From an uncultured Verrucomicrobia subdivision 3 bacterium (lineage in GTDB: Bacteria; Verrucomicrobiota; Verrucomicrobiia; Limisphaerales; UBA8199), in assembly GCA_903912925.1 (NCBI GenBank), contig CAIWJG010000631.1, positions 3,004 to 67,003 on the forward strand: a stretch of 64,000 bases of DNA, given 5' to 3'. The notes beneath the pieces are model-generated. The model was not told the DNA's origin, ran no database searches, and saw only the letters and a program-made list of their open reading frames with translations. Below, one piece after another: positions 2,639 through 58,125 of the stretch (positions are counted from its first letter, which is position 1; every line of letters starts with the position of its first letter). The translations under genes were made by a program, and so were the position numbers.

Positions 2639-2653
2639 CACGGCGTCAAGAGC

Positions 2654-3157: not shown

Positions 3158-3163
3158 GAATTG

Positions 3164-8041: not shown

Positions 8042-11000
8042 TTGCTGCACGAACGAACCAAGTGGGGAGAACATCCAACAACCAACATCGGCCGAACACC
8101 GAACATCGAACATCCAACATCCAACATCCAACGTCGAACATCCAACGGACGATTCCTGCCCCATCAGTGGGTGTTGGGTGTTCGAGGTTGGATGTTAGAT
8201 GTTTCCAGATCGTAATTGGTCTTATTGTGTTGCTCACAGCCGCGGCTGCTAGCCGAGGTGCGCAGCTAGACTTCCCGCCGCTCTGGCAGACCGACCTGCA
8301 GACGTTCCTGGAAAGCTCCGGGCTCGTCGCCGACCTCAAAGGCGACGGCCATGAGCGAGCGGTCATTGCGGGACGCGAGGATATGTTCGCCCTCGACGGC
8401 CAGGGGAAGGTGTTGTGGCGCTGGCGGTCCAAAGGACGCTTTATGACATACCCGGCGGTGCTGGTTCGCCCACCGCAGCCGTCCCTGGTTTACGCAGCGG
8501 ACAACAGCGGCTTGCTTACCTGCCTGGACGGAACGGGCAAGGAGGTTTGGCATGCGAAGTTGAATGCGCCGTCGAGCTGGTCCGCTTCTGTCGTTTGCGA
8601 TCTCAAGGGCAATAACGATGCTGATGTCATTCAGACCGACGAGACGGGCACGGTCTGGGCCTTCGAGGCGTTGACCGGCAAAGTGCTATGGCAGACGAAG
8701 CTCAAGGGCATACCCGTCAGCCCGGCGGTTGGCGACCTGGACGGTGATGGCAAGCCGGAGATCGTGGTGGCTACTGGGCAAGGAATCATCACAGCCCTCG
8801 GCGGCAACGGCACGGTGCTATGGGAGCGGACGATCGGCGGGTCGTCCCAATCCTGGGCCACCGCGGCGCCCGTCATCTTTGCTGGATCTGATGGGCGCGG
8901 TCGCGTGGCGGCTGCCTCAAGCGGCGGCCAACTCGTGTGCCTCGATGGCAAGGGCGAGGTATTGTGGCGCCGTCCAACTCATGGCGCGGCGGCTAGCTCG
9001 ATTTCCGTGGGTGATCTCGACCTGGATGGCCGGGCGGATATTTGTCTGATCACCCAAGCCGGCGTGATCTATCGCTTTGATGAAGACGGACGCGCAATCT
9101 GGGAGATTGACATGCAGGGCCGGAGCCTGGCACCCGGTGCGATCATCGACCTAGACGGCGATGGAAAGCCGGAATACGTGCTTAGCACGCAGGATGGCTT
9201 CTTGCAGGTCCTGAACGAAGCGGGCGAGTTCCTCTACCGCTTCCACTTCAGCAATCGCACAATCAATGTAACGCCAACCTTTGGCAACCTATCGGCGGAT
9301 TCGCCGGGGCTGGAAATGCTCATAACGGGCGGCGAAGCAGGCATTGTGTTCTGCTTACACACGCCGGCGGCAACCAACGCCGTCGCGCAGTGGAAGTCTT
9401 ATCGCGGCGACGTGCGCAACAGCGGTTCGTGGTTTGGCCTGCGGCAGTCGGGCGCGGTCCGGATCTCGCCGGTGAATCTGGCCGCCGATGAGGTGCTGAG
9501 CGGCCAGAGCCTGCGGTTCACGGTCGAGAATCCCCAGACGGAGCGGCATCCGCTCACCGCCACAGCCGTCTGCGTCCGTCCCGACGGCGCGAGGCAGGTC
9601 ACGACCACAACCGTGCTGGGCCGGAGCGGCGAGCTGCTGATGCCGTTGGATGTCACCGCGCCGGGCACCTACCAATTCAGTTGGACCTTGGCCGACGCAG
9701 GCGGGCGCACGCTGGTATCCGGCGGTCGGTCGCTGTTTCTTCAGCCGTTTGCCAACGACCGCGCGCTCGTCACGCGCGCGCTGGCTGCGCTCCGCGCGGC
9801 GGCGGAAGCAACAGATCCAGTGCTTCCACTTTCCGCCACGGCGCTTCGGCACGAAGCGACATCGCTGGAAGAGCGAGCCCGAGCGGTCGCCTCGCTTCAA
9901 GACTCCCTGCCCGGCAGCGGCGTAACCGGTTCGCAGGTCGTCCTGGATAAGTCAGCGGCGCTGGTTTCGCACGCCAAGCGGGCGCTGGCAGTCGCTGGTG
10001 TGATTCACCAGGCGACGGCCCTTGGTCAAGGCACAAGCCTGGTCGCTTTCCAGGGGACGCTATGGGAGAACCGGAAGGTGGACGAACAACTGCCCGCCCA
10101 GGCGGCCAACCCGCTTCGCATCACCCGCAAGGTGGTTCCCGGCGAGCATGAACCGGTCAGCTTGAACCTGTTCAACGTAACCGACCATGAGTTGCTGGTG
10201 CGCGTGCAGTTCCATGCTCTGACCAACGGGGTTGTGGTGGTTCCGCATCGGGCGGTGGGGGTGCCCACGTCTTTGGGTGAGGTCGCCTGGGACGCGATGC
10301 CCGAGTTGGACGAGAGCGGCACGCTGACCATCCCGTCCCTGGCCAGCCGGGAATTATGGCTGGATGTGGACCTGGGCGCCGCGAAACCGGGCAGCCACCA
10401 GGTCAAACTGCGTTTGCAGGCGCTCAACGGCGCGGGCGTGCTGGATGCGCCGACGCATCCTCACTCTGTGCCGCCGCCGGAGACTGCGATTGAAATTACG
10501 CTCCAGGTTGCCGACTTTGCTATGGCCGCGCCGGGTGATTTCCGCCTTTGCACGTGGGCCGCGCCGGAGGCAGCGCAACTGCCCGACCTGCTTGCCCACG
10601 GGAACAATGTCTTCACCGCTTCATTGCCTGCAGCGAAATATGACGCTCAGGGTCACTTGGCCGCGTCTGACTACAACGCGCTGGACCCGGTGTTGAGCAG
10701 GCTGCGAGGGAAGGATGTGGTGCTGATGTTGATGGGGATTCCCAGCCTGCACGGCGAATCCGGCAGCGCGGCTTATCGAGGCGACTTGAAGATATTCCTG
10801 GATGAGCTGGTGACACACATGGCGGGGGCGGGCTTCGATATAAAGCATTTTGCGCTGTATCCGTTTGACGAGCCGGGCGGTGTCGGTTGGACGCTGGTCA
10901 ATCCACTAGTCGAGTTCGGGAAGCAGGTCCGCGCGATCAACCCCGACCTGATGCTGTATGTGGACGGCGGGGGCGAGCTTCCCATGTTCCAGGCGATGGC

Positions 11001-11601
11001 GCCCTACATTGATATTTGGTCTCCGAGCATCTACATGCTCGCGGAAAAGACGCCAGTGATGGACGTAGTGCGCCAGAGCGGCAAGCTACACTGGTCGTAC
11101 AATTGCGGCTATGGCTATAGCCGGCCGGCCGGGGCGAATCTCAAGAACATGAACCTGGTTAGCGATTACCGGAACGCCGCGCTGTTTGCCCTCCGGCACA
11201 ATGCCACGGGAATCGGCTTTTGGTGCTACAACATGGGCGGCGATCCGTGGGGACGCATAGACTTGGAGTATATGCTGGTCTATCCGGGCCGAACCGGGCC
11301 GGTCACAAGTCGCCGCTGGGAAGCGGTCCGGGAAGGCATCGAGGATTATCGCATAGTGACCGCGCTGCGAAAGTGCCTGTCGGAAGACGGCGGAGCGAAG
11401 GTGCCTGCGGCGGTTCGCACTCGCATTGAACGGCTGCTCCAGGTAAGCCTGCCCGGCCTGGTGGATCAGAGCTATGAGGAGATGACGCGCGGGCTGGGGC
11501 GGAACGTGATTGACGCCAGCAACAACGACGCGACCTCGGGTGCGTTCCGCAGCGAGATGATGGAGTGTGTGGAAGCGGTAGCTGCCGGGAAGGCGAAGTA
11601 A
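8038..11601 (+). CDS. Giant secreted protein: FG-GAP/PQQ-like beta-propeller + DUF4091-like (GH123-like) C-terminal domain; paralog of 13383..16520
   Basis: Repeats GDLDGDGKPEIVVAT, GDLDLDGRADICL and IIDLDGDGKPEYVLST. C-terminal YPFDEPGG...IDIWSP...WSYNCGYGY...GIGFWCYN...WEAVREGIEDYRIV. ATG 8038 overlaps the upstream stop (ATGA), but the first ~45 codons translate hairpin H2. GTG 8167 or TTG 8188, directly before the signal peptide FQIVIGLIVLLTAAAASRGA, are plausible true starts. Confidence 0.85.
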   Translation: MIAARTNQVGRTSNNQHRPNTEHRTSNIQHPTSNIQRTIPAPSVGVGCSRLDVRCFQIVIGLIVLLTAAAASRGAQLDFPPLWQTDLQTFLESSGLVADLKGDGHERAVIAGREDMFALDGQGKVLWRWRSKGRFMTYPAVLVRPPQPSLVYAADNSGLLTCLDGTGKEVWHAKLNAPSSWSASVVCDLKGNNDADVIQTDETGTVWAFEALTGKVLWQTKLKGIPVSPAVGDLDGDGKPEIVVATGQGIITALGGNGTVLWERTIGGSSQSWATAAPVIFAGSDGRGRVAAASSGGQLVCLDGKGEVLWRRPTHGAAASSISVGDLDLDGRADICLITQAGVIYRFDEDGRAIWEIDMQGRSLAPGAIIDLDGDGKPEYVLSTQDGFLQVLNEAGEFLYRFHFSNRTINVTPTFGNLSADSPGLEMLITGGEAGIVFCLHTPAATNAVAQWKSYRGDVRNSGSWFGLRQSGAVRISPVNLAADEVLSGQSLRFTVENPQTERHPLTATAVCVRPDGARQVTTTTVLGRSGELLMPLDVTAPGTYQFSWTLADAGGRTLVSGGRSLFLQPFANDRALVTRALAALRAAAEATDPVLPLSATALRHEATSLEERARAVASLQDSLPGSGVTGSQVVLDKSAALVSHAKRALAVAGVIHQATALGQGTSLVAFQGTLWENRKVDEQLPAQAANPLRITRKVVPGEHEPVSLNLFNVTDHELLVRVQFHALTNGVVVVPHRAVGVPTSLGEVAWDAMPELDESGTLTIPSLASRELWLDVDLGAAKPGSHQVKLRLQALNGAGVLDAPTHPHSVPPPETAIEITLQVADFAMAAPGDFRLCTWAAPEAAQLPDLLAHGNNVFTASLPAAKYDAQGHLAASDYNALDPVLSRLRGKDVVLMLMGIPSLHGESGSAAYRGDLKIFLDELVTHMAGAGFDIKHFALYPFDEPGGVGWTLVNPLVEFGKQVRAINPDLMLYVDGGGELPMFQAMAPYIDIWSPSIYMLAEKTPVMDVVRQSGKLHWSYNCGYGYSRPAGANLKNMNLVSDYRNAALFALRHNATGIGFWCYNMGGDPWGRIDLEYMLVYPGRTGPVTSRRWEAVREGIEDYRIVTALRKCLSEDGGAKVPAAVRTRIERLLQVSLPGLVDQSYEEMTRGLGRNVIDASNNDATSGAFRSEMMECVEAVAAGKAK
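8070..8206. repeat. Hairpin element H2 (same aacatcg/aacatcc 7-mer family as H1)
   Basis: Left arm 8070-8147 (acatccaacaaccaacatcgg...gaacatcgaacatccaacatccaacatccaacgtcgaacatccaac). Shorter right arm 8169-8206 (gggtgttgggtgttcgaggttggatgttagatgtttcc). Confidence 0.8.
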
Positions 11602-11920: not shown

Positions 11921-13360
11921 ATGAGAACAGTCATTTCCCGCAGAGTCAACATTGCGGCAGCCGTCTGGCTCGCGGCCCTGTACGTCGGCACGCAAAGAGC
12001 TCCCGCTGCCCCTCCCGCCGCGGGTCAAGCCGTGCCGATCCCCCTGGAGCAACTCGGCGCCGTGGCTGGCAGACAGTATCGGGGCGACGGCTTGGCCGTT
12101 ACCGCCACAGCCGAGCAGCTCACATTCAGCGACACGGACTGGTTCAGCTTGGGGCCGGGGGTGAACGGTGCGGTCAATGCGCTGGCGGTGTCGGGCAGCA
12201 ACCTGTATGTGGGAGGCCAGTTCACCTCGGCGGGCGGCATCAGTGCCAGCAACGTGGCGAAGTGGGACGGGAACACGTGGTCGGCTTTGGGGTCGGGGGT
12301 GAATGGCTCTGTCGGCGCGCTGGCGGTGTCGGGCAGCGACCTGTATGTGGCGGGTGCGTTTACCACGGCGGGCGGCAGCAACGCAAATTACGTGGCGAAA
12401 TGGAACGGGATCGCATGGCTGCCCTTGGGCTCGGGACTGGGCTACATGATACCTGTCGAGCACTTTGCGCTGGCGGTGTCGGGCAGCAACTTTTTCGCTT
12501 GGCCTTTCTGCGTTGCCATCCTTCCGGGCGGCCAGATTATTTGTGATGTGGCGAATTGGAACGGCAGCGGGTGGTCGGTGCTGGAGCCGGGATTGAACCT
12601 CTGCCCCCTGGTGGTATCGGGCAGCGACCTGTATGGGAGTAGTTCGTTCAACTTTCCGGGCGGCGAACGTGGAGGCTATGTGGCGAAATGGGATGGCAGC
12701 GAGTGGTCGGACTTGGGGTCGGGTGTGTTCGGCTCGATCAATGCCTTGGCGGTATCGGGCAGCGAAGTGTACGCTGGCAGCACGTACTTCTTTCCGGACG
12801 GCCACAGTTATCCATATGTGGCGAAATGGAATGGCAGCGAGTGGGCGGTTTTAGGGTCAGAGGTGGGGGTTGGCAGCACGGTCAATGCGCTGGCAGTGTC
12901 GGGCAGTGACCTGTATGCGGGCGGCAACTTCACCACGGTGGGCGGCAGCAGCGCAAATTGCGTGGCGAAATGGGACGGGAGTGTGTGGTCGGCTTTGGGG
13001 TCGGGGGTGGGTGGCCTGAGCAATTCCTGTGTCTTTGCAATGGCGGTGTTGGGCAGCGACCTGTATGTGGGAGGCTGTTTCAGCACTGCTGGCGGGAAGC
13101 CGTCCGCTTATGTAGCCAGGGCGCACATCGGCCCGGCACGCGGCAGACTCACCAACTGTCTCAGTTCACCGGTCACCGGGTTCAGTTGCACCTTCAGTGA
13201 CGGCTCGCTCGGCCAACCCTACCGCATCCAGACCTCCCCTTCACTGGCAGGTGATTCTTGGACCGACCTCACGAACTTCACTTACGCCGGGCCAACCATC
13301 ATTACCGACACCTCCGCCGTCTCCACGACGAACACATTCTATCGCGCCGTCACACCTTGA
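11921..13360 (+). CDS. Secreted 7-repeat beta-propeller protein (~46-aa ALAVSGS.LY.GG.F...GG....VAKWDG..WS.LGSG repeats)
   Basis: Signal peptide MRTVISRRVNIAAAVWLAALYVG. Seven tandem repeats are visible in the peptide, with near-identical DNA blocks such as gcgctggcggtgtcgggcagcgacctgtatgt. C-terminal beta-sandwich-like tail ends in FYRAVTP. Confidence 0.85.
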   Translation: MRTVISRRVNIAAAVWLAALYVGTQRAPAAPPAAGQAVPIPLEQLGAVAGRQYRGDGLAVTATAEQLTFSDTDWFSLGPGVNGAVNALAVSGSNLYVGGQFTSAGGISASNVAKWDGNTWSALGSGVNGSVGALAVSGSDLYVAGAFTTAGGSNANYVAKWNGIAWLPLGSGLGYMIPVEHFALAVSGSNFFAWPFCVAILPGGQIICDVANWNGSGWSVLEPGLNLCPLVVSGSDLYGSSSFNFPGGERGGYVAKWDGSEWSDLGSGVFGSINALAVSGSEVYAGSTYFFPDGHSYPYVAKWNGSEWAVLGSEVGVGSTVNALAVSGSDLYAGGNFTTVGGSSANCVAKWDGSVWSALGSGVGGLSNSCVFAMAVLGSDLYVGGCFSTAGGKPSAYVARAHIGPARGRLTNCLSSPVTGFSCTFSDGSLGQPYRIQTSPSLAGDSWTDLTNFTYAGPTIITDTSAVSTTNTFYRAVTP

Positions 13361-17578: not shown

Positions 17579-17703
17579 CCAGCTCATTATGGTCGAGATG
17601 GGAACGCCGGGTGAGGGCACCCGGCCTACAAGAGGGCGGTTTTGCGGGAGTTGTAGGCTTGGTGCCCTCACCCGGCTGGGGATGACATGGCCATAATGGG
17701 CTG
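17579..17703. repeat. Palindromic intergenic element (~125 bp)
   Basis: ccagctcattatggtcgagatgggaacgccgggtgagggcacccggcctacaa (17579-17631) is mirrored by ttgtaggcttggtgccctcacccggctggggatgacatggccataatgggctg (17651-17703). Confidence 0.75.
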
Positions 17704-17739: not shown

Positions 17740-17825
17740 CTCGATTGTTCCTCGATTGTTCCTCGATTGTTCCTCGATTGTTCCTCGATTGTTCCTCGAT
17801 TGTTCCTCGATTGTTGCTCTATTGG
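17740..17825. repeat. 11-bp tandem repeat ctcgattgttc x ~7.5
   Basis: Perfect 11-nt periodicity from 17740 to 17805, then two degenerate units. The TAG stop of 17819..18610 lies in the last degenerate unit. Confidence 0.95.
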
Positions 17826-22673: not shown

Positions 22674-22677
22674 CTGT

Positions 22678-22880
22678 GAGTTACATGAGTTACATGAGTT
22701 ACATGAGTGCATGGGTTACATGGTTACATGGTTACATCGTTACATCGTTACATCGGGCAAGGGCAAGGGCAGCGGCTCCTCATGTAACTCATGCAACCAT
22801 TTAACCATGCACCCATGCACTCATGTAACCATGCAACCATGCAACCATGCACCTCATGTAACCGTGTAACCGTGTAACCA
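22678..22880. repeat. Hairpin element H3: ~200-bp imperfect palindrome with gttacatg-type 8-9-mer arms
   Basis: Left arm: gagttacat x3, ggttacat x3, cgttacat x3 (22678-22754). Loop ggcaagggcaagggcagcggctcc. Right arm: tcatgtaac / catgcaac / cgtgtaac units (22780-22880). Confidence 0.85.
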
Positions 22881-33181: not shown

Positions 33182-36067
33182 CTAAGTTTGATGCAGAGGC
33201 ATTAGAATGGAAACCGAGGTGCCGGTGCCAGGTTTCGTCGTAATCTCCAGCGACCCACCAACCTGCTGGACGCGCTCGCGGAGGTTCTGCAAGCCGCTGC
33301 CCGCGATGGTTCGCGCTGGATCGAAGCCGCGCCCGTCGTCTTTGACGGTGAGGTTCAGTTGCCCGTCGTTCAGTCTTAAGCCAACGGTGACCTCGCGCGC
33401 CCCGGCATGTTTGGCAACGTTGGCCAGCGACTCCTTCACCACGGCCAGCAATTCATGCCGCACGCGAGCGGGCACCTCAACCGAACTTTCGCCGGCGGGC
33501 AAGTCCAGCCGGCATTCCAGGCCGGCCGCCTGACAAAATCGTTCGGTCAATTCGCCGATGAACGCTACCAGGCTGCCGGTGTTGTCGCAGCGCGGATTGG
33601 TCGTCCACGCCAGCTCGCGCAACTCGTGCGCCAGCGACCGTGTCTCGCCGGCCAGGCTCTCAAGCTGCCCGGACGCAGCGCTGCCGCGGCGCTGAGCGGC
33701 CTCGAGCTGCAGCGCCAGGCCGGTGAGGCTGGCGCCCAGGTCGTCGTGCAGATCCCGGGCGATACGAGCCCGCTCTTCCGCCAGTACGGTGACCTGCTGG
33801 GCGCGCAGGGTGCGCCCTTGCCAGCGGAGCCGGTAAGCTTGCACGCCCCCTGCGGTGCCGATAACGAGCGCGGCGCACAGGACGTAAAAGGCCCACGTTT
33901 CGTAAAAGTGCGGCGCAACGTAAAACGAGAACTGCTCGCCTTGCTCGTTCCAAACGCCGTGCGAGTTGCAAGCCGCGACGCAGAAGGTGTAGTCGCCGGG
34001 GCGGAGGTTGGTATAGAACGCCACCCGGCGGTTTTGGTCATCCTCAAGCCAGTCCGCGTCGTAGCCCTCGAGCCTATACTTGAAGCGCACCCGCTCGGGC
34101 GCCGCGAGACTGTCGGCCGTGTAATGAATTTCCAGCACCCGCCCCCGCCCCGGCCTGATCTGCATTCGAGGTTGGATGTTCGATGTTGGATGTTCGATGT
34201 TCTTGCCCCCGCCCGCGCATCCATCCCCAAACACCACTTCCCCATTCGCCCGCACCTGCTCAATCACCACCGGCGACGCCAATTCCGCGCTCTGCATTTC
34301 CTTGGGATCAATCATCACGACGCCCTGCACAGTGGGAAACCAAATCCGCCCCTGCTGGTCCTTGCAACCGGCGGGCTGATTGTCCCCGCCATTGCACTCG
34401 CTGTTCAGCATCCCATCGGCCTCCCCGTAAGCGGTGCACTCCACCCTGGCCCGCCGCCCGGCCGCCACCTCGTTCAGTTGCTGCCGCGAAATGCGGTAAA
34501 TGCCGCGCAACCCGCTCAGCCAAAGATAGCCGAAATCATCCTCCTGGATGTTATTCACCACGTTCTCGCCCAATCCCTGCTCCTTCGTGAAGGTGAAGAA
34601 CCGCCGCTCGTTCTCCCCCGCCTGCCCATTTCTACTTTCTGCTTTCTGCTTTCTGCTTTGTTCAGCCCCTGCGGGCACAAACCGGTTCAGGCCGTCCTCC
34701 GTGCCCACCCAGAAAACCCCATCAGTGTCCTCATGAATCCACCACGCACGGTTATTGTGCTCGCCGCGGTTGGTTTTGTAGGCCGTGAATCTTCCATCCT
34801 TGAGGCGATTCAGCCCGCCGCCATAAGTCCCAAACCACATGTCCCCACGCCGGTCCTGATAGATAGCGCGCGCGTCACCGTGAGAAAGCCCCTGGTTGGT
34901 GGAATAGCTGCTCCACTGCTCACCATCCCGGCACAGCACTGCGGTCCTGATGCCAAGCCATATCCGGCCCTGCCGATCCTCGAACAGAGCCTTAAGGTCC
35001 TGCCCATCCCCTATTTCTCCCGGGGCGGGCAGCATCTGCCATTCCCCGCCTCGGAAACGCGCCAAGTGAGGGCCCGGCCAGGCTACCCATACCGCGTCGT
35101 GCCGGTCGGCCAGGAACACCCCGATCCGGCCCCACTCCCTGCCCTCCTGCGGGGCTTTCACATTCTCCACTTTCCCTGCTCGAATGCCGCTGAGGCCCGC
35201 GGCCGTCCCCACCCAACTCGTGCCGTCGGTGCCCTGGGTGACCGCTTGCGTGTCATCGTTCCGCAACCCCTCACGCCGTGAATACGCTCTGATCCGCTTC
35301 GGCTCCAACCGGAACAGCCCGGTCGTCGTCCCCACCCAAAGATCCCCTTCGCGATCTTCCAGCACGCGGGTGACATTCAGATCCTCGGGAAACTCAGGCG
35401 CCGCAAAAGGCTCCAGCCGCCCCTGAATCAGCCGGTGCAAGCCAGTGTGGCCGCCCTCGAGACGACGAGTGACCCATACCCGGCCATCGCTGGTCCGGCA
35501 AATCCGCTGTTGCCAGGGCCTTGATTCCAGGCCCGCGCTCGCCACCACTGTCCAGACGCCCTTGCTGCCCCGCCAGATGCTGGTGCCGGTGCAGAGCCAG
35601 AGCGAGCCGTCGGCCGCCCCAAGAAACGAAAAGCACGACGAGAGATCCGTGGACGGCACCTCCGGCGGGCTGAGCGAGGTCAACGACTTCGTGTTCAAAT
35701 CCAGCCGCTGAAGGCCACCCCCTACAGCCGCCCCCCCGAGCAGGACCAGCAGTCGTGAGGAACTCTCCTCGCCCAACTGCCTTACAGGATACTCACTGCC
35801 CGCCGAACCGAACGTCCAGGTTTGCACCCGCCCCCCGCGCGCCAGCGCCACCCGGCCTGCCTGCGGCGAGAACCAAACGCCGCCCGCCCGAGCCGCGCAG
35901 AGCGGACCAACCGGATCAGTCACCCCCCCTTCCGCCTCATAGCGCTCGAACCGATGATCGCGGTAATACAACAAGCCGTCGCCGGCACCGATCCACAAGC
36001 TGCCATCCTTCTGGTCCACCGCCAGATCGTTAAAACCGTTCCCGACACCGTGCCATCGCTCTTCCAC
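33182..36067 (-). CDS. Sensor histidine kinase: Reg_prop beta-propeller repeats + Y_Y_Y + TM + HisKA_3 + HATPase_c (5' end apparently displaced by a frameshift)
   Basis: Repeated DG.LW.GT..GL motifs. Y_Y_Y segment RPGDYTFCVAACNSHGVW. TM segment WAFYVLCAALVIGTAGGV. H-box ARIARDLHDDLGASLTGL. ATPase segment DDGRGFD...GSGLQNLRERV. The track ORF starts at a GTG directly after a TGA and has no N-terminal signal or TM segment. Confidence 0.9.
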   Translation of the reverse strand: MEERWHGVGNGFNDLAVDQKDGSLWIGAGDGLLYYRDHRFERYEAEGGVTDPVGPLCAARAGGVWFSPQAGRVALARGGRVQTWTFGSAGSEYPVRQLGEESSSRLLVLLGGAAVGGGLQRLDLNTKSLTSLSPPEVPSTDLSSCFSFLGAADGSLWLCTGTSIWRGSKGVWTVVASAGLESRPWQQRICRTSDGRVWVTRRLEGGHTGLHRLIQGRLEPFAAPEFPEDLNVTRVLEDREGDLWVGTTTGLFRLEPKRIRAYSRREGLRNDDTQAVTQGTDGTSWVGTAAGLSGIRAGKVENVKAPQEGREWGRIGVFLADRHDAVWVAWPGPHLARFRGGEWQMLPAPGEIGDGQDLKALFEDRQGRIWLGIRTAVLCRDGEQWSSYSTNQGLSHGDARAIYQDRRGDMWFGTYGGGLNRLKDGRFTAYKTNRGEHNNRAWWIHEDTDGVFWVGTEDGLNRFVPAGAEQSRKQKAESRNGQAGENERRFFTFTKEQGLGENVVNNIQEDDFGYLWLSGLRGIYRISRQQLNEVAAGRRARVECTAYGEADGMLNSECNGGDNQPAGCKDQQGRIWFPTVQGVVMIDPKEMQSAELASPVVIEQVRANGEVVFGDGCAGGGKNIEHPTSNIQPRMQIRPGRGRVLEIHYTADSLAAPERVRFKYRLEGYDADWLEDDQNRRVAFYTNLRPGDYTFCVAACNSHGVWNEQGEQFSFYVAPHFYETWAFYVLCAALVIGTAGGVQAYRLRWQGRTLRAQQVTVLAEERARIARDLHDDLGASLTGLALQLEAAQRRGSAASGQLESLAGETRSLAHELRELAWTTNPRCDNTGSLVAFIGELTERFCQAAGLECRLDLPAGESSVEVPARVRHELLAVVKESLANVAKHAGAREVTVGLRLNDGQLNLTVKDDGRGFDPARTIAGSGLQNLRERVQQVGGSLEITTKPGTGTSVSILMPLHQT
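34168..34202. repeat. Half-copy of the H1/H2 7-mer array inside the kinase CDS
   Basis: gaggttggatgttcgatgttggatgttcgatgttc is translated on the minus strand as GKNIEHPTSNIQP, in frame, within the kinase. Confidence 0.85.
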
Positions 36068-39837: not shown

Positions 39838-41292
39838 TTATTTGGCCCGGTAAGCAGGGTTTGGCTGTGGCAACTGCGCCCCCACTTCCTGCCACCAGGC
39901 ATGGAGGCGCGCACGGAGCTGGGCGGCACGCTCAGGTTGCGCGGCGGCCAGGTCGTGCTTTTCGCCGGGGTCGTCGCGCAGGCTGTAGAGTTCGACATGG
40001 TTGTCCTCGAAGTATTCCAGCAGTTTCCAGTCGCCGCAGCGTACCGCACTGACGGGGGTGGTGGTGGGGTAGTAATGAGGGTAGTGGAAGAAGAGCGCGT
40101 CGCGCGGGAGACTGGCGCGTGGCTGCTTCAGCAACGGGACAAGGCTGAGCCCGTCCAGCGGCTGCAGGGGCGCCGGTTGACTAGAGCCGCTAAGGCCGCA
40201 TAGCTCGCGAATGGTGGGGAAGAAATCCGTGCAGAGGACCGGTTCGTCACAAGTGGCGCCCGGAGGCGTGACGCCCGGCATGCGAACGATCAGCGGCACG
40301 CGGATGCCGCCCTCATAGAGGGAGCCCTTGCCGGAGCGCAGAGGGAAATTGTCGGTCACCTGCAGGCCCCGGTTGGTGTTGACGTAGCCCCCGTTGTCGG
40401 ACGCAAAGATCACCAGAGTGTGGTCGGCCAGACGGCGCTGCTCAAGTTTGGCCAGAACGCGCCCGACATTCTCATCGAGGATTTGGACCATCGCGGCATA
40501 GCCGGGGTTCCGATGATGCAGGCCCGGTTTGAGTTTGCTCTGGTAGTGTTCCACCAACCGCGCCTTGCCTTCGATCGGTGTATGCGGAACATGGAAACAG
40601 AGGTTGAGAAAGAACGGGCGATCCCTCGCCTCATCGATCAGCTTCAGCGCCTCATCCGTGAGCCGATCGTCCAGGTAATCGCCGGGCTTGCCCAAGCCGA
40701 GTCCCGGCACGTAGCGGAACTCGCCCGCGCTGCCGGAAGGCCCGCGAAACGGATAAAAATAGGTCGCGGGCGCACCCCAATGAGTGCCGCCGATGTTCAG
40801 GTCAAAACCCTGCGTCTCGGGTGAATGGGCGGCGTCGCCGAGGTGCCACTTCCCCACATGAAACGTGAGATAACCCGCGCCCTTGAGGACTTCGGCGGTG
40901 GTCACCTCGCTGGCAGGCAAATCAGCGATGGCCGGGGGCGGCACGAGCGGCTGGTCGTGTGGAACCCCGAGGGCTCCCTCTCGCCAGATCGTGTAGTGGA
41001 GGCGGGCGGCATGCCTGCCGGTGAGGATGGCAGCGCGCGTGGGCGAGCAGACCGGCATGGCATAAGCCTGGGTGAACCGCACCCCCTCCCGCGCCAACCG
41101 GTCGATATGCGGGGTCTCATGCAGGTCGGCCCCGTAGCAGCCCACGTCGCTCCAGCCCAGATCGTCGGCGAGGATGAATACCACGTTGGGCGGACGAGCC
41201 TCGGCAAAAGCCAAATGGGGAGCCAGCATGACCAAGGCCCCAAAAAGAATCCATCGCCAGCCGAGCCTTGTCTCCATTGCGTTGAATCTCAT
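39838..41292 (-). CDS. Arylsulfatase (formylglycine-dependent, Cys-type)
   Basis: PNVVFILADDLGWSDVGCYG and the FGly motif CSPTRAAILTGR. Signal peptide present. Confidence 0.95.
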   Translation of the reverse strand: MRFNAMETRLGWRWILFGALVMLAPHLAFAEARPPNVVFILADDLGWSDVGCYGADLHETPHIDRLAREGVRFTQAYAMPVCSPTRAAILTGRHAARLHYTIWREGALGVPHDQPLVPPPAIADLPASEVTTAEVLKGAGYLTFHVGKWHLGDAAHSPETQGFDLNIGGTHWGAPATYFYPFRGPSGSAGEFRYVPGLGLGKPGDYLDDRLTDEALKLIDEARDRPFFLNLCFHVPHTPIEGKARLVEHYQSKLKPGLHHRNPGYAAMVQILDENVGRVLAKLEQRRLADHTLVIFASDNGGYVNTNRGLQVTDNFPLRSGKGSLYEGGIRVPLIVRMPGVTPPGATCDEPVLCTDFFPTIRELCGLSGSSQPAPLQPLDGLSLVPLLKQPRASLPRDALFFHYPHYYPTTTPVSAVRCGDWKLLEYFEDNHVELYSLRDDPGEKHDLAAAQPERAAQLRARLHAWWQEVGAQLPQPNPAYRAK

Positions 41293-41354
41293 ACTCAGTA
41301 GGCCCCTTATGCCATTTCAGCGGCAGGATGTCGAGTGCCGACGAAGCTGGTGCG

Positions 41355-41578
41355 GAGGCCCCCGGGGCTGCTCTAAAGTCCGGCCAGTTGAGGGAAGATC
41401 CTGTTCTGCAGCCCTGAAATCCGAAGACCGAAGGCCGAAATCCGAATTCCGAGAATGGCCTGATTCGATTGGCTGCTGCTCCGCCGGGGTGGCTATCAAT
41501 TCGGACCTCGGCCTTCGGATTTGAGCACTGCTCGCTGGGAACGGGAGGACCTTAGAACAGCCCTGGGAGGCCCCTGCC
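41355..41578. repeat. Hairpin element H4 (shares the outer module with H1 and another module with H5)
   Basis: 41371-41446 matches 1134-1209 at 74 of 76 nt (hand count). Inner palindrome aaatccgaagaccgaaggccgaaatccgaattc...gaattcggacctcggccttcggattt. The right module 41527-41565 is the reverse complement of 46059-46097. Confidence 0.85.
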
Positions 41579-41601
41579 CCTCCGAAAACCGTCAACCCAC
41601 T

Positions 41602-42771
41602 TCAGGCCAGCTCTGCAAAAACGAGGTCCGTCACCTTGTTGCGCACAAGAACAGTCTTGTCGGCCGGCTTCGGCGAGTCGGTGGTGGCGAAAACGAATGC
41701 GACGCGAGTCTTCAGGTCGGCCACGCCAATGAGCGTGTCAATTCCGGCATGGCCGAAGATGCCGGACGAAGTTTGATCGTAGAATCCAAACCATTTGTGC
41801 GCATCGCAGGCCGGGCCGTTACCCCGCAGGAGGGGCCCAAGCCCCCACGGCTCATGCTTTGGCTTCTCGCCCGCGGCCCTTGCCGCAGTGATTTCCTTTG
41901 CATACTGCACAGTATGCATTTCATGCAAAATATCGCGCGAGATCAGCCGTTTCGATTTCCACACGCCTTCCTGCAGGTGAAAGTGCAGCACCATAAGCGC
42001 ATCGCCGAGCGTGCCAAAACAACCCGCGCCCGGCTGGCCGGCGTAGCCAAACGCCACTTCCGCCGATTTGGGTAACGGCTTTTCGGCCTTTGGCTGCGGC
42101 ACAATCGCGGCGTCCGCATTATCTGCGGGCAGGTCGTAGGAAAGTGATTTTGCGCGGAGCGGCGCGAAGAGCTTCACGCGGCACAACTCCGCCCACGGCA
42201 TGCCGCCGTTTACCCGGCGCACGCACTCCCCGGCGAGGAACGCGCCGCTCCAGCCGTGGTAGGCCGTTCTTGATCCGGGTTCCCATTCCACCGTCGCCGC
42301 ACAAAGATCTTGCAACGCCTGGTTCCAACCCGCCGCGTCGTGCACTGGCTTTGATGGCACCTTGGCCAGCCCGGCGGAATGCGTAAGACAGTGGCGGATC
42401 GTGATGGTGTCCTTACCGCCACCGGTGAACTCCGGAATGTGCTTGGAGACCAAATCACTGTAATCCAACTTGCCCTCCGTCTTGGCGATGGCGACCACGG
42501 TTCCGGTCACCAACTTGGAAAACGAATACAGCGGGTGCAGCGTATCCAGCGTGAGCCGCGCCTGTCGGTTGTCGAGCTTGCAGCAGGTGCCCACCGCCTT
42601 CTTCGTCCGCACTGAGCCTCGGCGGGACGCCACGAGAGCAGCGCCAGGCACGGTCCCTTCCTTCACGATCGTCTCGAGAAACTCGGCCGACCTCTCGGGC
42701 TTGGTTGAGGCCAGGGTTTGCATCGCGGCGGGCAGCGTCGCCGCGAGCACCAGGAATTCGCGTCTCTTCAT
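41602..42771 (-). CDS. Beta-lactamase-fold serine hydrolase (class C / esterase-like), exported
   Basis: ATG 42771 gives the Tat-like MKRREFLVLAATLPAAMQTLAS. S-x-x-K motif in LYSFSKLVTG. Confidence 0.8.
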   Translation of the reverse strand: MKRREFLVLAATLPAAMQTLASTKPERSAEFLETIVKEGTVPGAALVASRRGSVRTKKAVGTCCKLDNRQARLTLDTLHPLYSFSKLVTGTVVAIAKTEGKLDYSDLVSKHIPEFTGGGKDTITIRHCLTHSAGLAKVPSKPVHDAAGWNQALQDLCAATVEWEPGSRTAYHGWSGAFLAGECVRRVNGGMPWAELCRVKLFAPLRAKSLSYDLPADNADAAIVPQPKAEKPLPKSAEVAFGYAGQPGAGCFGTLGDALMVLHFHLQEGVWKSKRLISRDILHEMHTVQYAKEITAARAAGEKPKHEPWGLGPLLRGNGPACDAHKWFGFYDQTSSGIFGHAGIDTLIGVADLKTRVAFVFATTDSPKPADKTVLVRNKVTDLVFAELA

Positions 42772-43096
42772 ACGTGGCAGGTTCAGATGCGGTTCTTCGT
42801 CCGACCTCATTGGCCGGTTGTCTTTCTTGCGCGGAAAACAGCTTTCCTCGCGTTGGTGACGATGATGTTCGGCATAACGCCGGCTCAATCTTCCAGAAAC
42901 CAATACAAGTTCACAATCCGATTGTCGCGCCATTTCCAGAGTGGTAAGTGCCTCGTGAACTGTAACGGAATCGGTCAGTCATGGCGTGTACAGCCAGTGA
43001 TGGGGCAGCGCCATGACTGAGGCATTGCGCTGTAGCAGCCATTCGGCATTGCCAAGCACTTGGAGTAGTTGTAAAAACCAGCGAAAGACCCAGCGC

Positions 43097-43863: not shown

Positions 43864-46038
43864 ATGAAGTTTCTTTTCGTGCCCATGATGGTGTTGCTCA
43901 ACCTCGTATTGGCAGGGGCTGCCGAAACCCCCACGCCCTGGCCGCCGGGTGCCGCAGATTTCGCGGCTCGGATCGCGCGCAATTATTGGTATCTCTTTGG
44001 TGAGGAGAAGCGCGCCGACCTCGATACGATCAACCGCGACTTGCGTCAAGCTGCGCAGCAACTCGGCAAAGCTGATAATGATCAGGCCCGCCGTGCTGCC
44101 ACCGGGCGCGGCACGACCGCAGTCTGCCGGTTACTCGAACATGTGCAAGCCTGCCCTGGACTGATCCGCGTTGATCTTACAGGATCGCACCCCCGAATCA
44201 CACCCACCGGCCCCTTCGCAATGCCCGGAGATACGGGAGCCTTGATCTTCCAAGTTCTATCCGGTGACCAAGGTTTGAGCTACAGCACGACGGTTTTTGA
44301 CCTGTCGCTGCCACCGGGGGAATCGAGCCTCGCGACGCTGGATGTGTCTGCAAATGGAACGAATTATGCCGTGCTGGGGCTTGAACATCTCCCCTTCGGC
44401 CGCACAACCTTGGGGATTGAATTCCGGCGATCAGGCCAACCACCAATTCGGTTCGCCCTCGATGTCACCACTCCCCCGCCGGGGCATCTCAAGCTTACCG
44501 TGCTTTCCGACGATACGGGCCGCCCCGTGCCGGCTATGGTGCGGCTCTTGTGGCGCACTGACGGAGTCTCGCGCCAACCCGGTAACGGCATCGAGTTCGC
44601 CCCGCAGTTTGACAAACAGGGCAAAGCCAGCGGCGCGCGCAACGCCAATCTGCCCGGCCCGCTTGCCGATTCCTTCTGGTGTGTGCCAGGGCCCTTCGAC
44701 ATGGCTTTGGCGCCCGGAAAGTGGCAGATCGGCGTGCGCCGTGGCGTCGAGCACCAGGCCGTCTTCGAAGATATCACCATCGCCTCCGGCCAGACAATCG
44801 CGCGAACCTTCCGCCCTCACCGCTGGGTGGACATGCGCAAGCGGGGCTGGTGGTCGGGGGATGATCACGTCCACTGCCGGATTCTCTCGGACGAGGATGC
44901 GCGTCACTTGATGCACTGGGTCCAGGCCGAGGATGTGCATCTCGCCAACATCGTCAAGATGGGCGACATCTACCGCACTTACTTCGAGCAACGCGGCTTC
45001 GGCCCAACCTACCGTTTTGTGGACGGGGAATTCGTCCTGACCCCCGGCCAGGAATGCCCCCGCACCCATGATCAGATTGGCCATACGCTAGCCATGAACA
45101 TCACCAGTATGGTCCGCGACACGGAACGTTACTTTCTCTACGATGAGGTTTTCGATGCTGTGCATGCGCAGGGCGGCCTCACCGGCTACGCCCACGTCAA
45201 CTCAGGCATCTTCCACGTCCACCGCGACATGAGCCTCAATGTGCCGCGAGAGAAAGTGGACTTCGTGGAGATTCTCCAGTTCAACCAACTCGGCACCGAT
45301 CTTTACTACGAGTTCCTCAATCTCGGGTGCAAGCTGACCGCTTCGTCCGGCTCGGACGTGCCGTGGGGCGGCACCATTGGCGAAGGCCGGGCCTACGCTT
45401 ACCTGGGCAAAAAGCCGTTCTCGGCCGATGCCTGGTTCGAGGCGTTCCGCCGGGGACACACCTTCACCACCAGCGGGCCGATGCTGGATTTCCGCGTAGA
45501 TAACGCGCTGCCCGGCGATGAACTCCGGCTCAAGTCAGACCGCAGACTTCGCATCCGCGCGCGGGCCTGGGGTGATCCCAAACGCATGGCGCCGGTGCGG
45601 CTGGAGATAGTTCGGCATGGAGAAGTAATTCGCTCGGCCGAGTCCGACAATCCGGAACGGCCCGAGGTCGTTCTCGATTTCACCGTGGACTCAGGCTACG
45701 GCTGCTGGCTCGCCGCCCGCGCACGTGCAGTCGATGGCACCAGCGCCCACACGACGCCCGTCTATGTCGTGCGCGAGGGCTTGCGTTTTTGGAAGTTTGA
45801 CGAGCTCGAGCCGCTTCTGGAGAAGCGGGAATCGAGCCTTGGCCAAATCGAACAGATCGTCGCGGAGGCGCGCCGCGACAACGCCGAGGGCAAGCTGGAG
45901 CAGGACCGCTGCCGCAAACAGCTCGCGCTGCAAGGCGACCTGCTGCTCGATCGCGTCGCGCAGGCACGAAAGCTCTACCAGGACCTGCACCGAGTGGCAG
46001 ATGCCGAACGCGCGGAACGAGGTGTTCCCAGGCGCTGA
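43864..46038 (+). CDS. CehA/McbA-family (PHP-like) metallohydrolase, secreted
   Basis: Signal peptide MKFLFVPMMVLLNLVLAGAA. WWSGDDHVHCRILSDED, GYAHVN, ASSGSDVPWG. An alternative ATG lies at 43834. Confidence 0.75.
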   Translation: MKFLFVPMMVLLNLVLAGAAETPTPWPPGAADFAARIARNYWYLFGEEKRADLDTINRDLRQAAQQLGKADNDQARRAATGRGTTAVCRLLEHVQACPGLIRVDLTGSHPRITPTGPFAMPGDTGALIFQVLSGDQGLSYSTTVFDLSLPPGESSLATLDVSANGTNYAVLGLEHLPFGRTTLGIEFRRSGQPPIRFALDVTTPPPGHLKLTVLSDDTGRPVPAMVRLLWRTDGVSRQPGNGIEFAPQFDKQGKASGARNANLPGPLADSFWCVPGPFDMALAPGKWQIGVRRGVEHQAVFEDITIASGQTIARTFRPHRWVDMRKRGWWSGDDHVHCRILSDEDARHLMHWVQAEDVHLANIVKMGDIYRTYFEQRGFGPTYRFVDGEFVLTPGQECPRTHDQIGHTLAMNITSMVRDTERYFLYDEVFDAVHAQGGLTGYAHVNSGIFHVHRDMSLNVPREKVDFVEILQFNQLGTDLYYEFLNLGCKLTASSGSDVPWGGTIGEGRAYAYLGKKPFSADAWFEAFRRGHTFTTSGPMLDFRVDNALPGDELRLKSDRRLRIRARAWGDPKRMAPVRLEIVRHGEVIRSAESDNPERPEVVLDFTVDSGYGCWLAARARAVDGTSAHTTPVYVVREGLRFWKFDELEPLLEKRESSLGQIEQIVAEARRDNAEGKLEQDRCRKQLALQGDLLLDRVAQARKLYQDLHRVADAERAERGVPRR

Positions 46039-46057
46039 GCGCCCCTGGGGCCGGAAC

Positions 46058-46262
46058 AGGGCTGCTCTAAGGTTCTCCCGTTCCCAGCAAGCAGTTCCCT
46101 GTAGGCCGCGTGCCCCCACGCGGCGTTCGGGCTCAAATCCGAAGCTCGAAAACCGAAAAGGGCCAGCCACCCTGGGGGCGGTGTTTCGGTGTTTCGGTAT
46201 TGGGTGTTGGATGTTTCGGTGTTTCGGTGCTTCGGTTTTCGGATTTAGTCAGAGCGCCCCCG
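46058..46262. repeat. Hairpin element H5 (ggtgtttc 8-mer arm; shares a module with H4)
   Basis: The left module gggctgctctaaggttctcccgttcccagcaagcagttc equals the reverse complement of the H4 right module at about 35 of 39 nt (hand count). aaatccgaagctcgaaaaccgaaa pairs with cttcggttttcggattt. Right arm ggtgtttcggtgtttcggtattgggtgttggatgtttcggtgtttcggtgcttcgg. Confidence 0.8.
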
Positions 46263-46300: not shown

Positions 46301-49165
46301 ATGGCGCTCACTCATCTACAAGACAGGCCTTGCATTGCAGCAAAGTCAGTCAGAAAATTGGTGCCAATGAACCAGATCGAGAAGCAATTACCCAGGAGGG
46401 AGGATCAGGCTGCTAACTTGACAAGGCGCTCCGTTGCCTGGGCCCAACCCAATCAGTCAGCGGCTCTGCCAGCGGGACCAGTTAAATTGCCGGAACGATT
46501 GAGCCGTCGGGACTTTCTTTCGCGAGTGGGTGCTGGCGCCGCGCTGGCGCTGCCGCTCCTGCATCTGCCGCTGTTGGCCCAGAACCTCAAAGATGGCGGT
46601 GCCCCCATTGCGGAGCCTCACTTCCCCAATCGGTTGTTTCTCTTTGTCTGGCGCAACTGGGAACTCGCCAACACGGACCGCCTGGCCAAGGTGCTCAAGA
46701 CCCGCGAGAAGTCAGTCCTCAAACTCGGCGCCATGCTGGGCCTGCCAGCGAAGCCCCAGCTCACCGAGGACCAATTACGCCGCATCTACATCACGGTGAT
46801 TCGTCAGAATTGGCATGTGCTGCCGCATGAGCAATTGATCGAACTGCTGGGCTGGGATCGGGCGCGGTATGAATTCACGCTCAAGGAGGACGATTTTCTC
46901 TGGAGCAAGCTCGGCCTGGGGGTAAAGCCGAGGTGCGAATGGCTGCGCTATGCGGAGCCCTCCGCGAACGCAATTCAGCGCGCCGCCGAGATCAGGCTTA
47001 CCGTCCATGAGTTCTTCGGGGCCAATTTTGCCAAGCGTGGCGAGGCTCCGTTTCATTTCATCACGGAATTGTCGAGCACTCAGCCGGCAGTTTGCCTCAC
47101 TCCCAGAACCCGGCCCTCCGCAGGTGAATTCGCCCTGAGGGGATGCACGGTTCTTGATCCCGAGTCGCCAGTTGCCCAGGCGCTCGTCCGTAATTGGCTT
47201 GGCTATTTGCAGTCCACGTACGGAACAAAACTGAAGATGACCGCCCGGTCCTCCGGCGTTGGCGCTCGAACCATTCGGTTCGCAATTGCACCGGGGCGCA
47301 AGGGCGAGGAAAGCTTCCAAGTCAATTGCGGGGACGAGGGCCTGAGCGTAGCCGCCTCAAATCCCGCCAGTCTTCGCCAGGCCATCTATCATTTGCAGGA
47401 CTTGTGCGAGGAGCACGAGGGGCCACTGCTGCCGCGAGGCACCTGGCACCGCACCCGACGCGTGACCCCAAGTTACATCTATCCTTACTTTGCTCTCTAT
47501 GGCGATCCGCTGTTGGATCGGAGCATTGATCCGTTTCCGGAGGGCTATCTGGAGAAGCTCGGGCGCCGCGGTGTTGATGGAGTTTGGATACAAGCCGTGC
47601 TGCGCAACCTGGCGCCTTCTCGCATTTTCCCGGAGTTCGGCGACCAGTGGCAAGTTCGCCTGGAGAATCTCCGCCGCTTCGTGCAACGCGCAAACGCATA
47701 CGGATTGAAGATCTACCTCTACATCAACGAGCCCAGACCGATGTCCCGCGAGTTCTTTGAAAAGCATCCGGAAATGCGCGGAACGAGTTACGCCGGGGCT
47801 CCCGACGTAGCCCAGGAATTCGCGGTCTGCACCAGTGTCCCGCGAGTCAGAACCTGGCTGAGCGAAAGCCTCACCCATGTCTTCACGCAGGTGCCTGAAC
47901 TCGGCGGCATTTTCTGCATCACGGCGTCGGAAAACCTGACGAACTGTTTTGCCCACGGGCAGGCTCAGCATTGTCCCAAGTGCTCGAAGCGGCAAGGCTG
48001 GGAGGTGGTGACCGAATTGCTGGAAACCTTCAGCGAGGCGGTGCATAAAGCCAGCCCGACGGCAGAAGTCATTGCGTGGGATTGGGGCTGGGGTTGGGTG
48101 CCGAACGGCGCCGACGCCGGACAAACCATCGCGCACATGCCCAAGGGTGTGCAGTTGCTCAGCGTGAGCGAATGGGGCAAGCCCTATACTCGCGGCGGAG
48201 TGCCTCTGTCAGTGGCGGAGTATTCCATTTCCGTTGTCGGCCCGGGGGCCAATGCGCTGGATCACTGGCGAGTGGCCCGCGAGCACAAAGTTCCGGCCTT
48301 GGCCAAGGTCCAATTCAACAATACCTGGGAAATCTCGGCGGTGCCCTACATCCCCGTGCCAAACCTGATCCAGCAGCACATGGAAAACCTGCTGGCTGAA
48401 GACGTCAGTGGGCTGATGCTGTCCTGGACACTCGGGGGGTATCCGTCGCCCAACCTCGAAGTCGCCAAGGAGTATTACTACTCACCCGAACCCGCAGGGA
48501 AAGAGGTATTGGAGCGAGTCGCACGACGCAGGTATGGGGCCGGCGCCGCGCCCCACATTCTCTCCGCGTGGGAATGCTTCAGTACTGCGTTCGAGGAGTT
48601 TCCTTACGGAGTGGTTGCGGGATACAGCATTCCCACCCAACATGGCCCGTCAAATTTGCTGCGCCTGAAACCCACCGGATACAGCGCGGCAATGATTCTC
48701 TTTCCCTACGACGATCTGACAAAGTGGCTGGGACCCTATTCGCCTGCGACCGCGCAGCAGCAGTTCGAGAAGCTGGCCCAACTTTGGGAGGGAGGCTTGC
48801 AGCATTTCCGCCAGGCACTACCGCTCATTCCCAAGGAAAAAGCGCTTTCGGCGCGCAAGGATCTGGGAATTGCGGAAACCTGCTGGCTCCATTACCGGTC
48901 GGTGGCAAACCAAATCCGCTTCTATAGCCTGCGAGCCCAACTTGGAACAGCATCACCGGCCCCCGCAAGCCAGATCAATGAAATGAAGCAGATTGCGCGG
49001 AGTGAAATGAAACTGGCGCGCCAGCTCTATTCCATAGCCCGGCAGGACTCGACAATTGGATACGAGGCTTCCAACCACTACTATTACCGCCCCCTGGATC
49101 TGGCGGAGAAAGTCCTCAACTGCGAATACCTTATCCGGTGTTTGGATGCTGGATTACAGAGTTGA
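46301..49165 (+). CDS. Tat-exported TIM-barrel glycoside-hydrolase-like protein, unclassified; paralog of 61122..63527
   Basis: Twin-arginine signal LSRRDFLSRVGAGAALALPLL. Possible starts are ATG 46301, ATG 46367 and TTG 46499. GVDGVWIQAVL...GLKIYLYINEP...ITASENLTNCFAHGQAQHCPKCS aligns with the paralog. Confidence 0.8.
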   Translation: MALTHLQDRPCIAAKSVRKLVPMNQIEKQLPRREDQAANLTRRSVAWAQPNQSAALPAGPVKLPERLSRRDFLSRVGAGAALALPLLHLPLLAQNLKDGGAPIAEPHFPNRLFLFVWRNWELANTDRLAKVLKTREKSVLKLGAMLGLPAKPQLTEDQLRRIYITVIRQNWHVLPHEQLIELLGWDRARYEFTLKEDDFLWSKLGLGVKPRCEWLRYAEPSANAIQRAAEIRLTVHEFFGANFAKRGEAPFHFITELSSTQPAVCLTPRTRPSAGEFALRGCTVLDPESPVAQALVRNWLGYLQSTYGTKLKMTARSSGVGARTIRFAIAPGRKGEESFQVNCGDEGLSVAASNPASLRQAIYHLQDLCEEHEGPLLPRGTWHRTRRVTPSYIYPYFALYGDPLLDRSIDPFPEGYLEKLGRRGVDGVWIQAVLRNLAPSRIFPEFGDQWQVRLENLRRFVQRANAYGLKIYLYINEPRPMSREFFEKHPEMRGTSYAGAPDVAQEFAVCTSVPRVRTWLSESLTHVFTQVPELGGIFCITASENLTNCFAHGQAQHCPKCSKRQGWEVVTELLETFSEAVHKASPTAEVIAWDWGWGWVPNGADAGQTIAHMPKGVQLLSVSEWGKPYTRGGVPLSVAEYSISVVGPGANALDHWRVAREHKVPALAKVQFNNTWEISAVPYIPVPNLIQQHMENLLAEDVSGLMLSWTLGGYPSPNLEVAKEYYYSPEPAGKEVLERVARRRYGAGAAPHILSAWECFSTAFEEFPYGVVAGYSIPTQHGPSNLLRLKPTGYSAAMILFPYDDLTKWLGPYSPATAQQQFEKLAQLWEGGLQHFRQALPLIPKEKALSARKDLGIAETCWLHYRSVANQIRFYSLRAQLGTASPAPASQINEMKQIARSEMKLARQLYSIARQDSTIGYEASNHYYYRPLDLAEKVLNCEYLIRCLDAGLQS

Positions 49166-57798: not shown

Positions 57799-58125
57799 GA
57801 AACATTCGCTAGCCTGCTGCTGGTCCGTGCCATACTACGGAGTAAGTGGCTTGCACTACAATTCTCCTCGTTTTGTGCGTATTCTGCGCCTCTTCGCGGC
57901 TATTCCTTAGTGTTCTATCCTGCTGCCCTGGTAGTAAGTCTTGTCTTTTTGAATCTCCGCGCTGGTTGCCTTCGCGCATCCGAACAATGCGAGCAGCAGA
58001 GCCAATTGATAACTGTAAGCTTCGAGTGTTGCGACCTGGCCTTTACGTTTAATCTGCGACTGTTTGCGCCTTTCGGGAACGCGCGTCGTGCCCAACTCAA
58101 GGTCAGAAGTCACAGGATACCGCTA

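Follow-up and report, generated by a model that had tools for sequence, protein, structure and literature searches.

The window, a 64,000-nt stretch of DNA from an uncultured Verrucomicrobia subdivision 3 bacterium, contains three related palindromic elements, H1, H4 and H5. H4 occupies the spacer between a beta-lactamase-family gene and a sulfatase gene, while H1 sits in the 5' end of a gene encoding a DUF4838 protein, where it splits the signal peptide. As the earlier note on this DNA had stated, H4 is flanked by minus-strand genes (39838-41292 and 41602-42933) and H5 by plus-strand genes (43864-46038 and 46367-49165), the strands being taken from the gene calls for L114, an assembly of the same genome. 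The RNA of both H4 and H1 is predicted to fold into a long hairpin, with energies of -91.9 kcal/mol (z -5.2) and -148.4 kcal/mol (z -11.5), respectively. No Rfam family matched at gathering score anywhere in the window, or at E values up to 1 within 41200-41750, and no promoter-like site, terminator-like site or T-tract was found around H4.

The whole H4 element spans 41363-41565 (203 nt) and is bracketed by a 9-bp target-site duplication, GGAGGCCCC, whose left copy (41354-41362) and right copy (41566-41574) lie immediately outside the two termini. The left terminal inverted repeat (41363-41381, plus strand), CGGGGCTGCTCTAAAGTCC, differs by one mismatch from the consensus CAGGGCTGCTCTAAAGTCC; it begins CGGGG, a variant of the terminus CAGGGCTGCTCTAAAGTC, and corresponds in sequence to the right inverted repeat of an ISAs1-like IS found in loci L043 and L070. 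Reading inwards along the plus strand, it is followed by subterminal module A, GGCCAGTTGAGGGAAGATCCTGTTCTGCAGCCCTG (41382-41416), which is present in most master-type metagenome copies and lies within a 76-nt stretch common to H4 and H1, and by a left arm of CCGAARN heptamers (41417-41453), scored by Tandem Repeats Finder as 5.3 copies of period 7. The central core (41454-41505) is that of a 243-nt master element, and the right arm of TTCGG repeats (41506-41524) pairs with the left arm in the RNA fold. Beyond it lie subterminal module B (41525-41546), an alternative end module shared with H5, in inverted orientation, and with the metagenome element L129, and the right terminal inverted repeat (41547-41565), which reads CAGGGCTGTTCTAAGGTCC on the minus strand. 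The master consensus aligns with H4 over 41365-41518 at 88 % identity with a single 18-nt gap (master positions 3-174), and one metagenome copy (L222) is 97 % identical to H4. The element consists of the left two-thirds of the master fused to a module-B end and, since its duplication is intact, was already a chimera when it inserted.

The similarities among the three elements that had first drawn attention were largely as described. The match between H1 and H4 (1134-1209 and 41371-41446) is indeed identical at 74 of 76 positions and extends further, to 88 nt at 94 % identity (1128-1215 vs 41365-41452; BLAST E about 1e-35). The inverted match between H4 and H5 is also real, 36 of 39 positions (92 %) being identical between 41527-41565 and 46057-46095, but the H5 coordinates had been placed 2 nt off, and in that register (46059-46097) only 6 of 39 positions agree. 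The observation that gactttagagcagccc forms the last module ahead of the downstream start codon in both H1 and H4 is correct but trivial, as this sequence is the terminal inverted repeat and is found at both ends of every element. The proposal of a special relationship, or recombination, between H1 and H4 did not hold: the 76-nt module that they share is the conserved left end of the approximately 243-nt master, to which both are about 96 % identical and which recurs at dozens of unrelated loci.

H1 (1126-1402, plus strand, 277 nt) is flanked by perfect copies of the 9-mer CGACAGTGG at 1117-1125 and 1403-1411, the left copy corresponding to the R-Q-W codons of the DUF4838 signal peptide that H1 interrupts. 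Its left half consists of a terminal inverted repeat (1126-1144), module A (1145-1179), a CCGAARN arm (1180-1218), an AACATCS core (1224-1268) and a loop (1269-1293), and its right half of the remaining core (1294-1330), the right arm (1331-1371), a subterminal segment (1372-1384) and the second terminal inverted repeat (1385-1402). Both ends follow the master closely (positions 1-84 at 96 % and 187-243 at 98 % identity), while the core has been swapped for a palindrome of AACATCS heptamers, a subfamily to which the metagenome copies L127/L223, L143 and L220 also belong.

Deletion of 1126-1411, that is, of H1 together with one copy of the duplication, restores a continuous signal peptide, MNRPRMNTRLATAHQIPARTVLSRQW|LLLAFCFFGLAQAVSAADQ..., and the restored N-terminus is collinear with those of 603-aa orthologues, such as P0003 (...ARTLLSRKWPLLGVCLFGLVLAASAADQ). 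A base-precise empty site is provided by the contig L117, which is collinear with the window over 903-1126 and 1431-3159 and differs from it in length by 286 nt, which is exactly 277 + 9. The element is likewise missing from L115/L116, which are 97.5 % identical to the window on either side of H1, and so the insertion is a recent one. At its conserved right end, the master also contains an outward-facing ATG (GGAATGGCCCG..GACTTTAGAGCAGCCCTG), the H1 copy of which lies within 1373-1411, in frame with the interrupted signal peptide, and would yield MARADFRAALRQWLLLAFCFFGLAQA, a plausible replacement N-terminus. Further downstream, the DUF4838 gene contains an in-frame TAG (2636-2638) where orthologues encode lysine (FFVKHGV), and the ORF runs on past it, without a change of frame, as far as 3157; this stop codon and the H1 insertion jointly suggest that the gene is decaying, unless the TAG reflects a sequencing error.

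H5 (46057-46262, plus strand, 206 nt) is a decayed member of the module-B subfamily, and its left end and arms can be aligned with the L129-type element. Its left part comprises a terminal inverted repeat (46057-46075), module B (46076-46095), an extra hairpin (46096-46131) and a heptamer arm (46132-46161), and its right part a second heptamer arm (46179-46243) and a right terminal inverted repeat (46244-46262, TTTAGTCAGAGCGCCCCCG). The left terminus is well preserved and the right one degenerate, and no target-site duplication was found at H5, the flanks GGGCCGGAA and CAAGAGCGA being different. The 9-mer GAGCGCCCC does occur on both sides of the element; it lies at other offsets, does not fit the terminal-repeat-like ends and was taken as a coincidence or a remnant.

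The common terminus links these elements to a transposon. With up to three mismatches, the 17-mer GGGCTGCTCTAAAGTCC is found five times in the window (1128+, 1384-, 41365+, 41547- and 46059+), whereas 0.15 occurrences would be expected and none of 100 shuffled sequences reached five; both termini of H1 and of H4 are copies of CAGGGCTGCTCTAAAGTC, in inverted orientation. When one genome per species was scanned with the 15-mer GGGCTGCTCTAARGT, at least 113 loci were returned, 26 of those listed being from Verrucomicrobiota MAGs; a 15-mer is too short for such a search, and most of the listed matches beyond Verrucomicrobiota arose by chance or in coding sequence, such as those to a conserved coding motif in several Proteobacteria. 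One and the same sequence, the 3' end of an opposite-strand gene, comes after the motif at 17 of the 26 listed Verrucomicrobiota loci. The MAG JAXGQW01 harbours two copies of the corresponding IS (L043 and L070) with different flanks, which delimit a mobile unit beginning with CAGGGCTGCTCTAAAGTC and ending with ...AGAACCGCCCTG, the two forming the imperfect inverted repeat of the IS. Full copies are 1910-1920 bp long, and four of seven are flanked by perfect 9-bp duplications. The encoded protein matches the Pfam families DruA, DDE_Tnp_1_assoc and DDE_Tnp_1 and, as a conceptual fusion of two frames, NCBIfam NF033564 (ISAs1 family transposase) with 185.6 bits (cut-off 70), in a single stretch covering profile positions 34-310 of 314. 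From the ends of the IS copies, their duplications and the transposase match, it follows that the motif belongs to an ISAs1-family IS generating 9-bp duplications, of which it forms the right inverted repeat.

The elements in the window share with this IS the terminus and the length of the duplication and have no coding capacity. The likeness is confined to about 18-30 nt at the ends, and the interior contains no IS-derived sequence. No transposase gene was detected in the 64-kb window, since tblastn with the IS transposase gave no match better than E = 2.5; the parent IS was seen in other Verrucomicrobiota MAGs and in metagenome contigs. Its transposase is split between two frames at a conserved TTTTTCCCCCTCA in L228, L211/L198, L070/L043, L176, L155 and L165, and this junction is invariant across six copies that are only 67-82 % identical in protein sequence. 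The frame change corresponds to +1, or to the loss of one nucleotide in the mRNA, and, judged from the sequence, TTTTTCCCCCTCA is a candidate programmed recoding site. The N-terminal DruA/DUF4338 domain of the IS protein has been described as GNAT-like (PMC10853773).

The family extends far beyond the window. A metagenome scan with CAGGGCTGCTCTAAAGTCC found at least 120 loci (L118-L237), in freshwater, peat and soil metagenomes; at 50 of the listed loci, a partner terminus lies no more than 700 nt away, and 45 of these elements are distinct and retain both flanks. Duplications matching at all nine positions flank 20 of these 45 listed copies and those matching at eight or more flank 27, or 32 if a 1-nt register shift is allowed, whereas control 9-mers taken 15 nt further out gave none. 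The perfect duplications of the listed copies have a G+C content of 76 %, and no clear consensus emerges from them. In other Verrucomicrobiota MAGs, four of five paired elements are flanked by 9-10-bp duplications, the fifth (L069) having no recognizable one. The listed metagenome copies are 177-348 nt long, most commonly 243 nt, and the master of about this length is ordered as terminal inverted repeat, module A (GGCCAGTTGAGGGAAGATCATGTTCTGCAGCCCTG), CCGAARN heptamers, 52-nt core, TTCGG heptamers, GGGTTTGGAATGGCCCGGACC and terminal inverted repeat. Subfamilies vary in the core or in the subterminal module, of which a further variant, A', exists, and the cores are unusually heterogeneous for a single MITE family. 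The common lengths step by 7 nt (236, 243 and 250; 218 and 225), a pattern that fits the gain and loss of heptamers, probably by slippage.

The H4 locus of related genomes also points to insertion. The intergenic spacer between the beta-lactamase-family and sulfatase genes measures 309 nt in the window, as read from the sequence with H4 in place, and 309 - 211 = 98 nt. The corresponding spacer is 111 nt in P0121, whose sulfatase is 98 % identical, and 95 nt in P0125, both values coming from gene coordinates only, and about 11 nt in L243, measured on DNA too diverged in the spacer to be aligned. These shorter spacers in syntenic relatives show that H4 is absent there, although the site is not base-precise; three further relatives (P0126, P0128 and P0134) proved not to be syntenic when checked for an empty site.

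Taken together, H1, H4 and H5 very probably represent a MITE family carrying the ends of an ISAs1-family IS of Verrucomicrobiota. The elements are small and non-coding (277, 203 and 206 nt, with a limit for MITEs of about 600 bp), and they have terminal inverted repeats, degenerate at the right end of H5, and a fixed 9-bp duplication, which H5 lacks. They occupy many unrelated loci, with three copies in 64 kb, at least 120 metagenome loci and copies in several Verrucomicrobiota MAGs, and their termini are those of a transposase-coding element present in related MAGs and contigs. Empty sites exist, base-precise for H1, while the absence of H4 from relatives is not base-precise. The family was very probably derived from this IS and is presumably mobilized by it: the IS-encoded DDE transposase would recognize both inverted termini and move the element in trans, insertion would proceed through a 9-bp staggered cut, and its repair would leave the 9-bp target-site duplication. 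Within the family, H1 represents the subfamily with an AACATCS-heptamer core, and H5 a decayed module-B element. The description of the elements in the earlier note as modular, repeated, copied and mobile is borne out by the duplications and empty sites and by a candidate mobilizing gene in relatives; that candidate, however, encodes an ISAs1-family DDE transposase and not the RAYT/TnpA-REP protein that had been suggested.

The same note had also called the elements orientation-aware, which the wider sample does not support. With orientation set by the asymmetric module A and genes called by ORF and GC3 heuristics only, the callable contexts comprise four ++, five --, nine -+ and one +- cases. 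Co-directional genes are thus split four (++) to five (--), the A end faces a gene start in 20 cases and the other end in 18, and H1 and H4 themselves have opposite polarities relative to transcription. The orientation of the elements relative to flanking genes looks random. Among the listed loci, and subject to the same heuristic gene calls, 38 of 54 callable flanks face gene starts, and divergent contexts outnumber convergent ones by nine to one; there may be an excess of flanks at gene starts, although upstream spacers are larger targets anyway.

Other explanations of these hairpins have to be weighed against a transposase-mobilized MITE family. Abundance between genes, palindromic structure, repetition, GC-richness and strong folding would equally be expected of REP/BIME-like palindromes spread by RAYT, a Y1 transposase of the IS200/IS605 type. 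REPs are 20-40 nt long, carry a GTAG/CGTC head and are tied to Y1 (HUH) transposases, and they are not known to make a target-site duplication. The elements described here, by contrast, measure 180-350 nt, start with CAGGG, have no GTAG/CGTC head, are flanked by a fixed 9-bp target-site duplication and share their termini with the inverted repeat of a DDE-type ISAs1 IS, and one of them, H1, lies inside a coding sequence, so that an origin as REPs is highly improbable. The very stable folds (-92 and -148 kcal/mol, z -5.2 and -11.5), the retention of the palindromic architecture across subfamilies with different cores and the possible gene-start excess (38 of 54 flanks, on rough gene calls) could also be reconciled with selection of the hairpins as functional RNA or DNA structures, such as terminators, mRNA stabilizers, attenuators or protein-binding arrays, the shared modules then reflecting a common function. 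Such a primary function is nevertheless very unlikely, considering that there is no Rfam match, T-tract terminator or promoter-like site, that both orientations are equally frequent, that H1 breaks a coding sequence, and that presence or absence varies among near-identical strains while the duplications record insertions; the secondary co-option of individual copies is compatible with all of this.

The position of the motif exactly at the junction between conserved IS and variable flank in the 17 listed Verrucomicrobiota loci could mean that it is a preferred target of the IS beside pre-existing hairpins, in the manner of IS1397 and BIMEs, the hairpins having spread by recombination or gene conversion. 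Around complete IS copies, however, the duplications flank the motif and the diverged left repeat (CAGGGCGGTTCT...) on their outer sides, which places the motif inside the mobile unit; moreover, the opposite end of the IS carries nothing that resembles the other half of a hairpin, and the MITEs bear their own duplications at unrelated loci, which leaves this reading with scarcely any credibility. An artefact of assembly or sequencing, for example chimeric joins at repeats, might be suspected in an assembly of metagenome type when many motif matches lie at contig ends. Its probability is negligible, as L114, an ENA assembly made independently, agrees with the window at 99.99 % identity across 21.5 kb that include H4 and H5, and dozens of independent assemblies contain the same family with flanks intact.

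A bolder extension of the MITE interpretation is that the palindrome undergoes active regeneration, for instance when one arm is copied by fold-back during transposition or repair, or that copies have been co-opted by the host. This is suggested by the retention of the heptamer-armed hairpin in every subfamily while cores and modules are swapped, and by the possible preference for gene 5' ends. The idea is unlikely; if co-option did take place, the copies could serve as RNA-level insulators or stabilizers, or as donors of new N-termini.

The window also contains other repeats. A 146-nt palindrome at 3165-3310, with ends GTAACTGTTCAGG/CCTGAACAGTTAC, has an arm (GTGGGGCAGACCTCCGGTCTGCCGGTTCACGGAG...) that forms the interior of a 95-nt element (L072) bounded by ISAs1-type termini and flanked by a 9-bp duplication; L190 contains a copy at 91 % identity, and the palindrome constitutes a separate repeat family that shares modules with the MITEs. 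Of two AACATCS arrays resembling the H1 core, one is a complete palindrome (8069-8210) located at the start of ORF 8038-11601 or shortly ahead of it, and the other a single arm at 34165-34202 within a minus-strand histidine-kinase ORF (33182-36067); an octamer-repeat palindrome (GTTACATG / CATGTAAC) occupies 22677-22880, just upstream of a gene at 22894; none of the three has ISAs1-type termini. A 116-nt palindromic repeat at 17583-17698, with ends CATTATGG.C/G.CCATAATG, shares 89 % identity with part of L199, and a short hairpin from it recurs within H5 (46100-46128); it is followed at 17740-17824 by 7.7 tandem copies of the 11-mer CTCGATTGTTC. A relatively AT-rich intergenic stretch of 107 nt (57833-57939) shows 94 % identity to part of the unrelated metagenome contig L129 and has no Rfam match; it may represent either a further repeat or a conserved non-coding element. 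Lastly, ORF 11921-13360 contains a coding tandem repeat (12149-13100) of at least seven units of 138-150 nt (about 46-50 aa).

The MITE interpretation accounts for the striking long hairpins of this Verrucomicrobiota genome as insertions rather than regulatory RNAs, and ORFs called through the elements, such as 1151-2638, would be artefacts or have altered N-termini. A recent insertion is documented in the signal peptide of a secreted DUF4838 protein. The family is abundant and breaks assemblies, many matches lying at contig ends, and its consensus should be useful for masking and for strain-level insertion typing. It also ties a MITE family to the little-studied ISAs1 family and draws attention to a DruA/GNAT-like subgroup of the latter with a conserved frameshift site.

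Compared with known systems, the elements resemble REP/BIME sequences in being abundant intergenic palindromes able to influence mRNA structure, but they differ from them in having no 20-40-nt units, in that the gene next to the motif in relatives encodes a DDE and not a Y1 (HUH) transposase, and in the presence of 9-bp duplications. The ISAs1 family, represented by ISAs1 of Aeromonas salmonicida and the H-repeat/ISEc1 of E. coli, is characterized in ISfinder by ends reading CAGGG and direct repeats of 8-10 bp, and its transposase is encoded by a single uninterrupted ORF. The parent IS agrees with this family in its transposase, which matches NF033564, as well as in the CAGGG ends and the 9-bp duplication, although it is longer (1.91 kb), has an N-terminal DruA/DUF4338 domain and carries a transposase gene split at TTTTTCCCCCTCA, while the window elements encode nothing. 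The searchable literature yielded no account of MITEs derived from ISAs1 or of any MITEs in Verrucomicrobiota; the kind of element is well known, and the particular family does not seem to have been described. IS-derived bacterial MITEs are exemplified by the MaeMITEs of Microcystis (PMC2779907) and the Tn3-derived TIMEs (PMC4133298). Like these and the Correia/NEMIS elements of Neisseria, the elements described here are short, non-coding, multi-copy and hairpin-forming, with terminal inverted repeats, a duplication of fixed length, the termini of an autonomous element and presence/absence polymorphism; what sets them apart from known bacterial MITEs is their ISAs1-family parent, their arms of tandem CCGAARN heptamers and their interchangeable cores and subterminal modules.
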